From a virus (taxonomy: Duplodnaviria; Heunggongvirae; Uroviricota; Caudoviricetes), in IMG/VR virus record IMGVR_UViG_2698536519_000007, positions 1-15,617 of that record: DNA of 15,617 nucleotides, one strand, 5' to 3'. The position numbers and the translations under genes are program-made. Positions 551 through 5,935 of the stretch are shown in pieces. The notes under the pieces were generated by a model. It was not told where the DNA came from, ran no database searches, and worked only from the letters and a program-made list of their open reading frames with translations. Positions within the stretch are counted from its first letter, which is position 1. The number at the start of each line of letters is the position of its first letter.

Positions 551-877
551 TGAAGTGGTCTACTGAATTTGGCCATCTGAACAGGGTGATATGCTCACCT
601 TAGAACAACACAGGTGCACCAATGAAAAGAAGAAATTTCAGTCCTGAATTCAAACGTGAATCCGCTCAGTTGGTTGTCGATCAAAATTACACTGTTTCTG
701 ACGCTGCTAAGGCTATGGATGTTGGTCTTTCCACGATGACGGAATGGTTCAAACAACTGCGTGATGAGCGTCAGGGCAAACGCCAAAAGCCTTCCTGATA
801 ACACCGGAACAAATCGAACTACGTGAGCTAAAGAAAAAGCTACAACGAATTGAAATGGAAACGAAATATTAAAAAAC
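551..877 (+). mobile_element. IS3-family (IS911-like) element, left segment with terminal inverted repeat
   Basis: Sequence from 551 (TGAAGTGGTCTACTGAATTTGGCCATCTGAACAGGGTGATATG) matches the IS911-type left IR as I recall it, followed by an orfA-like reading frame. The segment ends in ATATTAAAAAA at 867-877, where unrelated sequence begins. Confidence 0.7.
622..798 (+). pseudogene. IS3-family orfA (HTH transposase subunit), frameshifted
   Basis: ATG at 622 gives [53 protein letters not shown]..., an IS911 OrfA-like N-terminus, stopping at 796-798. The expected continuation ([21 protein letters not shown]) lies in another frame at 799-868, so there is at least one indel. Confidence 0.7.
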
Positions 878-2455
878 TTTCCATGTGTGAAACCCCGTCC
901 CGAGTCTCAGAAACTCCCCGGTAAAGCTGGCAGTCTAATATAGCGAAGGAAGCAGTCGTCGGCCTTTTGGTGGTATGACCCTTAAAAAACATGGTTCAGG
1001 GGCTGTGGCGGATCCGACGGTGGTAGCTTGATCCCGTTCAGGAAGGTGATTTCTCCGTCGTCTCCTCCTTCGTTCATTAAAAATGAGCAAGGAGATTTAT
1101 ATGAAAAAATCCTCCCGAATGTCTATTGTCCATTCTCATGCTGCGGGCGTTGATATTGGGGCCAAATTTCACGTTGTGGCCGTACCGCCTGATGCTGACG
1201 CCGAGCCAATAAGGACTTTTCAAAGTTTCACCGGCGACCTTCATCGTATGTCTGACTGGCTCAAAACCTGTCATATTACAACCGTCGCCATGGAGTCCAC
1301 CGGCGTTTACTGGTTGCCTGCTTTTGAGATCCTTGAAGCAGCGGGTTTTAATATGATACTCGTTAATGTCAGTGCCGCAAAAAATGTTCCCGGTCGCAAG
1401 ACTGATGTCAACGACGCACAGTGGTTGCAGAGACGACATGCATTTGGTCTTCTCCGGGCCAGTTTCAGACCTGTACACGACATTTCAGTCCTCAGGTCTT
1501 ATCTGAGGCAACGAGAACGCTTGACTGAATACCGGGCTGCGCATATTCAGCATATGCAGAAAGCGCTGATGCAGATGAATGTGCAATTGCATCATGCCGT
1601 ATCGGATATCACTGGCGTCACCGGTCTCTCGATCGTCAGAGCTATTGTCAGCGGTGAGCCCGATCCTTCAGTATTGATCCAGTACCGTGATGTGAGATGT
1701 AAGAAGACGCCAGAAGTACTTCAGCAGGCACTGACAGGGAACTGGCAACCTGAGCATCTTTTTGCACTTGAGCAGTCGGTGGCATTTTTCTATTTTTACC
1801 AGGAAAAGATCCGTGAACGTGACGATCAAATCGAAATTCATTAATACAACTCAGCACCGGGACTGAAAATCCTGAAGGAGTATTACCCTGCGCCAGACAT
1901 CGTACAAAGCAACCCAATCAGCTTTCCTTGATGTCAGACCGTTACTCTGGAAAATTACCACGGCAGATCTGACACAAATACATGGGGTTGGGCCTTATCT
2001 GGCACTAAAATTCGTTGCCGAACGCGGTACTGACATGAATCGCTGGCCTGATGCGAGCCATTTTACCTCGTGGCTATTTTGTCCACGGGAAATAAGATCT
2101 CCGGTGGAAAAGTGTTGTCCTCGAAAACGAGACGTTCATCCAGTTGAATTGCTGCTGCACTCAGGCTGGCAGCCACAACGATTGGTCGGAGCGATACTGC
2201 GTTGGGTGCTTTTTATCGTCGATTATCATCCCGTATAGGTAAAGCAAAAGCAGTCACTGCAACGGCAAGAAAACTGGCAACACTGTTCTACAATGCCTTG
2301 AAATATGGTAAAAAATATGTCGACAATTGTGCTGATTACTATGAAGAGCGTTACCGTAGTTGCGTACTCAATGGACTTAAACGAAGAGTAAAATCACTGG
2401 GTTATTCTCTCCAGCAAGACCCTGAATTATGAGAGTGAACCAGGAGTTTCTCAGG
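878..2455 (+). mobile_element. IS110-family insertion sequence (DEDD recombinase type) inserted into the IS911-like element; boundaries approximate
   Basis: IS911-like sequence stops at 877 and resumes at about 2456 (AAGGCTACCGCGCTCTTGATGTCAGA, encoding KATALLMSD, the OrfA C-terminus). The intervening about 1.58 kb has a roughly 220 bp non-coding left end, a recombinase with IS110-family signatures and a very short right end, which is the typical IS110-group layout. No terminal inverted repeats, as expected for this family. Confidence 0.6.
1101..2432 (+). pseudogene. IS110-family DEDD recombinase/transposase, disrupted by stops and frameshifts
   Basis: N-terminal frame 1083/1101-1844 carries the RuvC-like DEDD signatures (GVDIGAKFHVVAV, VAMESTGVYW, KTDVNDAQ). 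The C-terminal HhH/Transposase_20-like motifs are split across frames: GVGPYLALKFVAERGTDMNRWPDASHFTSWL (about 1990-2090), GNKISGGKVLSSKTRR (about 2085-2140) and GAFYRRLSSRIGKAKAVTATARKLATLFYNALKYG (2202-2432). There is an in-frame stop at 1842-1844 and another near 2146. Likely start is ATG 1101, with AAGGAG 6 nt upstream. Confidence 0.7.
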
Positions 2456-3289
<834 letters not shown>

Positions 3290-3319: not shown

Positions 3320-4891
3320 TTACTGAGAGCTCAGATCAACTTTCCAGGGCAACAGATCGCGTACCCGGTTTGCCGGCCAGTCCTGGATATGTTCAATGAC
3401 GTAACGCAGCCACTTTTCTGGCTCCACATTGTTCAGACGGCATGTGCCGATCAGCGAGTACAACACCGCCGCATGTTCACCACCGCTGTTGGAACCCGCG
3501 AACATCCAGTTTTTCCGGCCTACGGCCACTCCCCGTAAGGCGTTCTCTGCGATGTTGTTGTCGATTTCCACCCAGCCATTACTGCAGTACACGTTCAGTG
3601 CATCCCACTGTTTCAGCAGGTATGCGAACGCTTTTGCCGTATCTGAGTGACGCGACAGTGTTTTCATCTGTTGCTGTATCCAGTCATACAGTGACTGCAT
3701 CAGTGGCGCGGCTCTGGCTTTTCTTGCCGCCAGACGCTGTTCTGCTGAACAGCCCCGGACCTCTGCCTCGATGGCATACAGTTCACCGATACGCTGCAGG
3801 GCTTCCGTGGTGATGTAGGTGGGCGCTCTTGCATGCACATCGTGGATTTTTCTCCGGGCATGAGCCATACACGCGGCTTCCGTTATTCTGCCGGATTCGT
3901 ATAACGCCCGGTAACCACCGTAAGCATCGGCCTGAAGCACACCGCTGTAACCGGCCAGGTGATTTTGTGGATGGATACCTTTCCGGTCCGGACTGTACGC
4001 GAACCAGACCGCCGGGGGCATCTGTGAACCGGCGTTACGGTCATCACGGACGTAGACCCACAGCCGGGCTGTCCGGGTTTTACCGCTGCCCGGCTCCTGG
4101 ACCGGGACGGGGATATCATCAGCATGGACTTTACCGGGCATCAGCACATACTGGCGCAGGACGTCATACAGCGGCTCCAGCAGTTCAGCAACAGCACCTG
4201 TCCAGCGCCCCAGTGTGGCACGGCTCAGCTCCACTCCCTGACGACGGTATATTTCTGACTGGCGGTATAACGGCAGATGGTCTGCATATTTCCCGGTGAC
4301 AACATGGGCCAGAAGCCCCGCTCCGGCATAACTGCGTGCAATGGGTTTTGAAGGTACTGGTGCCTGCACGATATGGTCGCACCGGCAACAGGCCTGTTTC
4401 GGACGTTGTGTTTCGATAACCTTAAAGGCGCTGCTGATAAGCTCCAGTTGCTCTGACACATCACATCCCAGAGAACTGAGTTCACCACCACAGGCAGGAC
4501 AGCATTCCTCTTCCGGCCGGATAACCCGGGTTTCACGGGGAAGTGAGGCCGGTAACGGTTTACGGGCTGAAGACTGGCGCAGGGCGGATGGCAGTACCGG
4601 GTCATATTGCTCACCCAGCGTTTCCGCCATTTCTTCCTGAAGTGCGCTGATTCGCTCCTGTGCTTCCTGTATCTGCCGTTCGGTTTTTGCACGAAGTTTT
4701 TCTGAGCTTTTACCGAACTGCATACGTTGCAGTTTCGCAACCAGCGCCTTCAGCCGGTTGATTTCGGAAGCATAAGCCGCCACCCGCTGTGAGAGCAGGC
4801 GGTTGTATTCAGCCATCTGGCGGATGGTGTCCTGTTGCGTCTGCAACAGTGCCCGCAGGCGGGCGTTCTCATGAGCAAGTGAGGTGTCCAT
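3320..4891 (-). CDS. tnpC: IS66-family transposase TnpC
   Basis: 523 aa ORF with N-terminal coiled-coil/leucine-zipper-like region, a Cys-rich zinc-finger-like segment (CCPACGGEL...CCRCDH) and a DDE-type core, as I recall for IS66 TnpC. ATG start with GAGG-containing RBS upstream. Confidence 0.9.
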
Positions 4892-4910
4892 ATCCTCACT
4901 TTACAACGGG

Positions 4911-5258
4911 TTATATGCGGATTCCAGCGCGTTCCGTTCGTTTCGGGTGCTTCCAGTTGATACCTTCAAGAAGCATGGATAACTGAGCCGGAGTAAGGTG
5001 CACCTTGCCGTCACGGGTGACTGGCCAGACGAAGCGGCCCCGCTCCAGGCGTTTGGTGAAGAGGCACAGTCCGTCACTGTCAGCCCACAACACTTTTATC
5101 TGGTCACCCCGGCGTCCGCGGAAGATGAACAGGTGTCCGGAGAACGGGTCATCCTTCAGGACGTTCTGAACTTTTGATGCCAGGCCGTTAAAGCCATTTC
5201 GCATATCGGTGATACCTGCAACCAGCCAGATACGCGAACCTGCAGGGAGAGATATCAT
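4911..5258 (-). CDS. tnpB: IS66-family TnpB (Orf2)
   Basis: 115 aa ORF (MISLPAGSRIWLVAGITDMRNGFNGLA...) placed between tnpA and tnpC. Its ATG overlaps the tnpA stop (TGATG), the usual IS66 arrangement. Confidence 0.85.
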   Translation of the reverse strand: MISLPAGSRIWLVAGITDMRNGFNGLASKVQNVLKDDPFSGHLFIFRGRRGDQIKVLWADSDGLCLFTKRLERGRFVWPVTRDGKVHLTPAQLSMLLEGINWKHPKRTERAGIRI

Positions 5259-5935
5259 CAGTGGCTGCTCCCTTTTATTTCGCGGATAAGTGTCTGTAAT
5301 AACGCCGGCGTCAGTTTACCTTTAAGCCTGAGAGTTCCGGCCGGCAGAACCAGCTCACAACACAGACTGTCGGACGGTGTATTTATCTGCTCTGGTTCCT
5401 GTGCGGGGGCCGGGATTTTATTATCCGGCTCCGGCGTTAACGTCACGGGAAGCAGTGCCGGCATATTTTTTCCGGAAGGCAGCAGGCCACCTTTCCGGTA
5501 TTGATGGCGCCAGTTGAAGAGCAGGTTATCGTTGATTCCGTTTTCCCGGGCGATCTGCGCCACACAGGCTCCGGGCTGCAGTGACTGCTCCACTAAGGCG
5601 ATTTTAAACTCATAAGGGAAGTTGGGCCGCCGGGGACGTTTTTTTACCACGGGGGCTTCGGATATAACGGTGCTTTCAGGACGTACGACTGGTACCGTGG
5701 AAAATTGTCCGTAAAGGCAGGCATCAAGTTCCTGCTCCGACATGCCTGCGGGCAAAGGCCACGAAAGGCCAGCTCTCCGAAAGCGCACGAACATACTACA
5801 AACTGTTGATTTTGGTACACCCAGGCGACGCCCGGCCACAACCCGGGGTAAATGTTCTTCAAAGTGAAGACGTAAAGCTTCAGTGATCCAGGTCCGGTGT
5901 TTCATACGATAGTGTCCATTAAAAATGATGGACAT
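5258..5935 (-). CDS. tnpA: IS66-family TnpA (Orf1) with an N-terminal extension of about 95 aa; true start uncertain (ATG 5935, or internal GTG near 5649)
   Basis: The C-terminal about 127 aa (RPRRPNFPYEFKIALVEQSLQPGACVAQIARENGINDNLLFNWRHQYRK...LLPVTLTPEP...) has the IS66 TnpA layout. The frame stays open upstream to ATG 5935 and encodes an extra HTH-like segment. No ATG sits at the canonical start position. Confidence 0.6.
   Translation of the reverse strand: MSIIFNGHYRMKHRTWITEALRLHFEEHLPRVVAGRRLGVPKSTVCSMFVRFRRAGLSWPLPAGMSEQELDACLYGQFSTVPVVRPESTVISEAPVVKKRPRRPNFPYEFKIALVEQSLQPGACVAQIARENGINDNLLFNWRHQYRKGGLLPSGKNMPALLPVTLTPEPDNKIPAPAQEPEQINTPSDSLCCELVLPAGTLRLKGKLTPALLQTLIREIKGSSH

Follow-up and report, generated by a model that had tools for sequence, protein, structure and literature searches.

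The 15,617-nt stretch of DNA analysed here (hereafter the window) was 100% identical to the E. coli chromosome NZ_CP083497, and it harbors an IS110-family insertion sequence hosted by an IS911-type remnant. When the flanks of the element (777–876 and 2458–2557) were joined, the resulting empty site aligned without gaps to an uninterrupted IS911 (GAAATATTAAAAAAGGCTACC, with six A), and removal of 877–2457 restored IS911 with no base gained or lost. Since this alignment was gapless, the element could be delimited to 877–2457, that is, 1581 bp with one of the two flanking AA copies counted. The AA dinucleotide is found on both sides, at 875–876 and 2456–2457, as a shared core; the insertion was orientation-specific and the duplication was restricted to this core. 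The insertion point corresponds to the programmed –1 frameshift motif of IS911, A AAA AAG, placed at the end of orfA. The asymmetric layout of the ends, noticed in the sequence-only reading, is real: the non-coding stretch upstream of the recombinase start, estimated there at about 220 bp (878–1100), measured 224 bp (877–1100), and the right end, estimated at about 23 bp, comprised 25 bp (2433–2457). The coordinates of all features are collected in Table 1.

Table 1. Features of the IS110-family element and of its junctions with IS911 (positions in the window).
Feature	Position	Strand	Remarks
Left half of IS911 target (TTAAAA) and left core AA (875–876)	869..876	+	Empty site; exact repeat of 982–989
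IS110-family insertion sequence	877..2457	+	Right core AA copy (2456–2457) included; excision restores IS911
Non-coding left end (LE), 224 bp	877..1100	+	Without long ORF
Left arm (AGAAACTCC) of subterminal inverted repeat	909..917	.	33 nt inside left end; pairs with 2443–2451
Structured RNA domain (match of covariance model R1)	939..1076	+	Outer stem P1 (944–950/1066–1072) around two stem-loops with internal loops
Loop 1 5′ side (UCGGCCUUU), right-target guide	959..967	+	Reverse complement AAAGGCCGA matches IS911 A-AA-GGC (874–876 and 2458–2460), 6 contiguous nt
Hairpin P3 of loop 1	968..981	+	3′ strand short by 2 nt here; lost pairs flagged in the model alignment
Loop 1 3′ side (UUAAAAAACA), left-target guide	982..991	+	982–989 equal left flank and core; 990 equals element base 1
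Loop 2 5′ side (GAUCCGACGG), expected place of right-donor guide	1011..1020	+	
Hairpin P6 of loop 2 (UGGUAGC..GAUCCCG)	1021..1036	+	Distal part missing; conserved GAC changed to AGC; variant flagged in the model alignment
Start of loop 2 3′ side (UUCAGGAAGG), left-donor guide	1037..1046	+	1038–1044 equal last 5 right-end nt and core; 1045–1046 equal right IS911 flank bases 1–2
Recombinase pseudogene (DEDD RuvC-like and Tnp domain)	1101..2432	+	ATG at 1101, stop at 2430–2432
Right arm (GGAGTTTCT) of subterminal inverted repeat	2443..2451	.	Ends 4 nt before core
Right junction: left-donor half TCAGG (2451–2455), core AA (2456–2457), right IS911 flank GGCTAC (2458–2463)	2451..2463	+	

The recombinase presented both domains of the family, DEDD_Tnp_IS110 (PF01548, E 1.5e-20) and Transposase_20 (PF02371, E 5e-13), and matched the NCBIfam model NF033542, 'IS110 family RNA-guided transposase', with 258 bits (cut-off 140), while the IS621 transposase (PDB 8wt6) gave a weak match restricted to the N-terminal domain. 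NCBI thus already names the protein RNA-guided, and the kind of system to which it belongs is known. Its relatives form a very large clade of well-conserved recombinases of about 450 aa spread over many phyla, with at least 8000 proteins among the matches, all at E 1e-20 or better. An intact 446-aa gene was found in an element of E. coli NCTC9066 (L002:2498–4085), which shares 89.8% DNA identity with the window copy and also occupies an IS911-type element at the same site. Compared with this gene, the one in the window has suffered single-base deletions near 1836, 1927, and 2077, which produce three frameshifts; its ORF ends at 1844, and it is annotated in RefSeq as two fragments. The left end has also lost nucleotides relative to the intact copy (2 nt at 981, 1 nt at 1027, and 1 nt at 1078), and the RNA helices P3 and P6 described below are damaged. 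The window copy is thus degraded and almost certainly inactive, a fossil. The genome carries no second copy; 62 E. coli genomes carry the element at 100–99.9% identity, one copy per genome, whereas about 390 genomes retain just a 276-bp left-end fragment and others just the right third.

The left end had been put forward as a candidate bridge (guide) RNA locus with potentially structured stretches. The search for a library bridge-RNA family that this proposal called for came back empty, with Rfam returning no relevant match either at gathering thresholds over the window or at permissive E-values over 700–2700. The structure itself was borne out by comparison with relatives and not by folding of the single sequence, whose minimum free energy (MFE) of –63.1 kcal/mol was indistinguishable from that of shuffled controls (–62.5 ± 4.1, z = –0.15; opposite strand, z = +0.14). 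With the window left end as query, nhmmer recovered upstream regions from about 45 loci with proteins of no more than 56–70% identity, and a MAFFT alignment of 42 left ends, analysed with RNAalifold, revealed a fold in which a stem, P1, encloses two arms, P2/P3 and P4-P5/P6, with compensatory changes in 19 of the 32 pairs. The loci collected for comparison comprised 80 of genomic and 80 of metagenomic origin, and a covariance model of the conserved core (R1; 154 positions, 38 pairs) gave 80 and 74 matches (about 150 loci from many phyla), all of them on the plus strand and upstream of the recombinase gene. These matches were full-length, one in nearly every locus, distant loci not used for training included. 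In the window, cmsearch with R1 produced a sole match, on the plus strand, with 83.8 bits (E 4e-17).

The conservation of pairing was measured in two kinds of alignment. In the MAFFT-only alignment, which is based on sequence alone, 90.1% of the cells could pair, against 82.5% after shuffling and 40–52% when the partners were slid, and cells with both bases changed numbered 113 against 37 in the control. Among 76 distinct model-aligned sequences the pairing reached 92.3% against 73.9%, with 481 double-change cells against 135; the large alignments, being fitted to R1, favor the structure, a bias that the MAFFT-only alignment mitigates. Conserved secondary structure with covariation is therefore present across homologous copies. 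Moreover, several G-U pairs are nearly invariant (for example, 74 of 75 sequences at three positions), and because these would become A-C on the opposite strand, the RNA is assigned to the plus strand only. The strands of P6, UGGUGAC and GAUCCCG, pair in 70–75 of the 76 sequences, and it is here that the window carries its 1-nt deletion at 1027. Scans of the left end for a σ70-like promoter and for a terminator were both blank, and a position matrix aligned on the start of the RNA displayed neither a fixed –10 motif nor any motif at constant distance; a TGnTAnnnT-like motif was noticed by eye in the alphaproteobacterial subset. A further candidate, a conserved hairpin at the terminus of the left end (its first 34 nt), was discarded (mean MFE –9.2 vs –8.6 for shuffled sequences).

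If this RNA were a guide, its internal loops should hold segments related to the junctions of the element, as the sequence-only reading had anticipated. The four single-stranded loop sides were taken from the model alignments and compared with the flanks and ends of each own locus. In the window, the 3′ side of loop 1 carries TTAAAAAAC (982–990), an exact copy of the left junction 869–877, for a 9-mer expectation of 0.13 per window. Across the family this loop side held an exact copy of at least 8 nt (8–10 nt) of the left junction in 43 of the 66 guides that are not A-rich, compared with 1.5% of mismatched RNA/locus pairs, and the copied junctions sit 41–122 nt upstream of the RNA. It corresponds to bases –5 to –1 of the left flank, followed by the core and element bases 1–2, with a Z of 5–10 per position, some of these position-wise values (here and below) being inflated by the subdivision into AA and AG clades. 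The 5′ side of the same loop is related to the other half of the target in the opposite sense, being antiparallel-complementary across the family to the second core base and right-flank positions 1–5. This complementarity, one of the two cases assessed by within-clade permutation, was not reached in any of 2000 permutations for the AA clade and gave p = 0.003 for the AG clade. Both loop 1 segments thus match the IS911 flanks and core, and the earlier expectation that the target of the RNA would relate to the IS911 site it occupies held good.

For the ends of the element itself the expectation was realized by half. In the 3′ side of loop 2, TCAGGAAGG (1038–1046) is an exact copy of the right junction 2451–2459 (9-mer expectation 0.17 in the 15.6-kb window), and across the family an exact match of at least 7 nt to the last 5 nt of the right end plus core was found in 74 of 93 cases, against 3.5% of mismatched pairs, with an identity Z of 4.7–7.8. 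The right-donor guide was not found: neither the 5′ side of loop 2 nor the 3′ tail showed a clean diagonal against the start of the left end, and within-clade permutation, here applied to the right-donor candidate, detected weak complementarity of the 5′ side to element bases 1–6 in the AA clade (2.58 vs 2.18 of 6, p = 0.002), the AG clade showing no such signal. The two junctions had the same core in 79 of 84 loci, and the two loops had the same core in 136 of 140 distinct RNAs (68 AA, 68 AG). In addition, guides extend past the core into the partner: the final guide base agreed with element base 2 (Z = 6.9), and the base that follows the core in the donor guide agreed with right-flank base 1 (Z = 3.5). 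Since the loop segments match those junctions, the RNA of the window is programmed for the IS911 site that it occupies and for its own right end, and the comparison with other copies revealed that the guide-junction relations hold across the family, tracking changes in targets and ends. Two further segments had been candidates from reading by eye: GGTAGCTT (1022–1029) as right-target guide was dropped, as UGGUGAC forms a conserved helix with GAUCCCG and the AGC of the window is a mutation of it, and TCTCAGAAAC (906–915) as donor guide turned out to be the left arm of the subterminal inverted repeat.

The targets reconstructed across the clade divide along the same cores. In the AA branch, A6 followed by G or A was observed in 38 of 45 distinct reconstructed targets, and the left flanks mostly encode a product ending in ..ER(D/E)ILKK; all eight of the left flanks tested corresponded to HTH_Tnp_1, the OrfA type of IS3-family elements, ending in ..ERDILKK. 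About half of the clade homes to the IS3-family frameshift site. In the AG branch the targets were many and different, each matching its own guide. An intact Salmonella copy (L005, S. enterica arizonae CCUG 6322T), whose protein is 98% identical to that of NCTC9066, was located at the homologous site of another IS3-family member, where the right flank differs, indicating that the shared position reflects targeting and not inheritance alone. Similarly, three copies in one genome (L012, L015, and L016) have three different flanks.

Another feature of the clade is a subterminal inverted repeat of 6–12 bp, detected in 80 of 82 loci and 9 bp long in the window. Its arms covary, as in GTTACTT/AAGTAAC, GTTAGT/ACTAAC, and CGTGGGTTCATT/AATGAACCCACG, and their position is asymmetric, 3–4 bp from the core on the right and 31–39 bp on the left. 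The right end of clade members measures 3–45 bp, and in most of them the stop codon lies inside the terminal GTTTCTTAG.

IS110-family proteins have been demonstrated by experiment to be RNA-guided (PMC11208160, PMC11187229), and the locus shares much with the best characterized of these systems, IS621 (PMC11208160, PMC11208158). In both, the RNA lies in the long left end, upstream of the DEDD/Tnp gene and on the same strand, with two internal loops that serve the target and the donor, respectively, and a segment in each that repeats the top strand of a left half plus core. Loop 1 of both also has a segment complementary to the top-strand core plus right half, although the loop 2 equivalent was not found here. 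One 2-nt core is present in all guides, guides reach 1–2 nt into the non-cognate partner (the handshake of IS621), insertion is orientation-specific, and the duplication is limited to the core. The order of the guides, in contrast, is reversed. Read on an actual IS621 copy (L167), the left junction is ATCAGGCCT|TGTATT, with AUCGGGCCU on the 5′ side of the target loop, and the right junction is ACAGTATCT|ACCCAC, with GUAGAU on the 3′ side of the loop, a reading that agrees with those of Durrant et al. (PMC11208160) and Hiraizumi et al. (PMC11208158). Each IS621 loop hence presents the long top-identical guide 5′ and the short complementary guide with the handshake 3′, whereas the present clade has the short complementary guide 5′ and the long top-identical guide with the extension 3′. 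This is the IS621 layout seen from the other DNA strand, so that the element is oriented oppositely relative to its guide frame and, the strands being swapped, the 1–2-nt extensions of the clade correspond to the handshake guides of IS621.

Further differences set the clade apart from IS621: no separate 5′ stem-loop was seen, the common stem P1 enclosing both loops; its core is AA or AG instead of CT; its subterminal inverted repeat has 6–12 bp instead of 2–3 bp; and the recombinase has 446 aa here against 326 aa in IS621, with similarity detectable in the N-terminal domain only. At the level of RNA sequence, R1 reached at most 5.5 bits on the IS621 locus with filters off and retrieved nothing on the ISEc21 left end. 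ISEc21, whose upstream non-coding region is required in cis or in trans, resembles the clade in that its natural target is also a conserved coding part of the transposase genes of IS3-family elements, though the insertions are at the DDE codons rather than at the frameshift site, and the order of its matches, with the bottom-strand one 5′ of the top-strand one, is contrary to that found here (PMC11187229). The ISEc21 transposase has 358 aa and shares only 32% identity over 96 aa; the ISEc21 guides, when read by eye, were ambiguous and were not used. The IS1111 group (ISEc11, IS4321/IS5075), considered here from the text of the papers (PMC11187229, PMC11208160), has long subterminal inverted repeats too. 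These repeats, regarded as typical of the group, measure 7–17 bp, a description that fits the repeat of the clade (6–12 bp; 9 bp in the window), and in the IS1111 seekRNA the top-strand-pairing segment lies 5′ of the bottom-strand-pairing one, as in the present clade (PMC11187229). The IS1111 transposases, according to the same papers, have 330–350 aa, and their RNA is in the right end, downstream of the gene, unlike the left-end RNA of the clade.

Considering the covarying fold together with the loops that match the junctions, the proposal of a guide RNA locus gains firm support, and it is very probable that 877–1100 is an IS110-family left end carrying a bridge-type guide RNA gene on the plus strand, with its structured core at 939–1076. 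The 3′ side of loop 1 would pair with the bottom strand, because it reads as the left target flank followed by the AA core and element base 1. By homology to IS621 and ISEc21, the RNA would be transcribed with the recombinase mRNA or just upstream of it and would bind the DEDD recombinase. By the same analogy, it would hold together the target and a circularized donor junction (right end-AA-left end), strand exchange occurring at the AA core, and the 1–2 nt extensions past the core could serve as a handshake, pairing with the recombinant product only. The link to the IS621 and ISEc21 RNAs is one of architecture and protein homology, not of RNA sequence.

Other explanations of the left end have been weighed against a guide RNA. 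It could act solely in cis, as the 5′ leader of the recombinase mRNA with a fold that controls translation or stability, the junction matches being sites recognized by the recombinase at the DNA level and repeated within the end. Several observations fit such a leader: P1 has an anti-Shine-Dalgarno-like 3′ strand (UCCUUCG in the window, CCCUCC in the family consensus), the MFE structure of the single sequence pairs 1064–1069 with the ribosome-binding site at 1089–1094, the left end has no separate promoter or terminator detected, and the covarying inverted repeat at the ends could itself be a DNA-level site. What a leader leaves unexplained is that the loop segments follow sequence lying outside the element, in the left and right flanks of unrelated targets, that the same core is kept in both loops, and that the relation to the target is one of complementarity for one segment and of identity for the others; the experiments on the homologous protein family cited above also speak for guidance by RNA. 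A leader role in place of the guide role is for these reasons very unlikely, though the two could coexist. That the left end is ordinary spacer DNA with chance repeats, as its unremarkable folding energy and the missing Rfam match might suggest, deserves next to no credence, this being refuted by the two exact 9-mers at predicted junctions, where 0.13 and 0.17 were expected, and by the family-wide statistics.

The distribution of the element in E. coli raises a different alternative, namely a single insertion into an ancestral IS911-like sequence followed by passive spread, which would make the guide-junction agreement in this species historical. All the E. coli copies and fragments are indeed found in IS3-type remnants at the same position, and the NCTC9066 copy and its IS911 flank have both diverged by about 10% from the window. 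Such a history may explain part of the E. coli distribution, but as a full account it appears even less plausible than a mere leader, given the Salmonella copy with its distinct host element and right flank, the three flanks of the three copies in one genome, and the dozens of members placed in unrelated IS3 elements or in non-IS sites, each matching its own guides.

The RNA of the clade, its swapped layout, the repeat, and the preference for the IS3 frameshift site could not be found described. We advance, tentatively and as a reading that may well prove wrong, that the clade of about 450 aa represents an undescribed bridge-RNA architecture, with an inverted guide frame, one outer stem, asymmetric IS1111-like repeats, and an AA/AG core, that it is an evolutionary link between the layouts of IS110 and IS1111, and that its AA branch is a natural 'IS killer'. 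With an inverted guide frame, the long handshake-bearing guides would read the upstream flank and the right end. If true, the AA branch homes to the A6G programmed-frameshift site common to IS3-family elements; the targeting of the most conserved nucleotides of this family by about half of the clade would be a further case of ISs policing ISs, for which ISEc21 is the precedent. At the locus itself, an unannotated remnant of a 138-nt RNA gene would account for the exact position of this dead IS110-family element within the IS911 slippery site. The long guide (7–9 nt plus a 2-nt extension), being on the loop side opposite to that of IS621, could matter for the order of strand exchange, which would be predicted to begin with the strand opposite to that of IS621 relative to gene orientation, and for the re-engineering of bridge systems. 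The covarying asymmetric subterminal repeat suggests that the ends are recognized through an element which the IS621 model lacks.

As to whether members of the clade have been reported before, the literature searched, whose coverage is incomplete, contained nothing linking IS110 elements to the IS3 frameshift site, and none of four conserved left-end DNA 13–15-mers appeared in the text of 200 of the 222 supplementary files of Durrant et al. The clade motif NKISGGK was present in 0 of the 274 ISfinder representatives of that study, and it occurs six times in its global-tree table, where the entries listed were Bacteroidetes proteins without an ISfinder name.

In the window, the 3′ strand of the outer guide-RNA stem P1 (UCCUUCG, within 1064-1094) resembled an anti-Shine-Dalgarno sequence, the family consensus being CCCUCC. 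In the single-sequence minimum free energy fold, the ribosome-binding site AAGGAG (1089-1094) paired with 1064-1069 in place of P1, and guide-RNA folding and recombinase translation may compete with each other.

The guide-encoding DNA itself appeared to have served as an insertion site in the case of IS621. In the copy carried by E. coli NN5 (locus L167, positions 1385-1649), the first ~72 bp of the left end were duplicated in tandem, and the duplicated stretch stopped exactly at the guide-encoding ATCGGGCCT, after which the left-end start TGTATTATCC recurred. The four other genomes at the top of the IS621 match list likewise gave matches split into two pieces. The pattern looks like that of an IS621 insertion into the stretch encoding its own target guide, a mimic of the target ATCAGGCCT. 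In the branch with an AA core dinucleotide, a single alphaproteobacterial MAG harbored three copies of one element (L012, L015, and L016), each occupying its own run of 7-8 A, and no IS3 OrfA context was recognizable around these runs. The guide of this branch may require the A-run itself rather than IS3.

Tandem or near-adjacent copies were observed in some family members, at loci L007 (2790-2860), L058, L081, L133, and L148. At L007, only AA separated the right end of one copy from the left end of the next (TTAGG-AA-CCTCTTAAGG), and this chromosomal junction is, as judged from its sequence, the one expected of a circle junction.

Immediately beyond the IS911 remnant, the window carried two ORFs, together spanning 3320-5935, which we take to be parts of a putative IS66-type element, based on IS66 annotations in related loci. 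If so, at least three IS families would be nested here.

ORFs located beyond the IS911 remnant in the window
Feature	Position	Strand	Location
ORF, 523 aa	3320-4891	minus	directly downstream of the IS911 remnant
ORF, 225 aa	5258-5935	minus	downstream of the IS911 remnant

Partial copies were also found in E. coli. A 276-bp fragment in strain AR_0055 (L003:2501-2776), also present in about 390 other genomes, ST131 included, corresponded to the left end only of the window element (97.8% identity), with a truncated PTS ascorbate-type IIC gene fused to it. The fragment preserved a full-length match to the guide-RNA covariance model R1 (86 bits) without the recombinase gene. In C9 and others, a variant with 94% identity to the window element was represented only by its right third (L004:2501-2914), still attached to an IS3 piece, with the right junction identical in position, and adjoining a group II intron maturase fragment.
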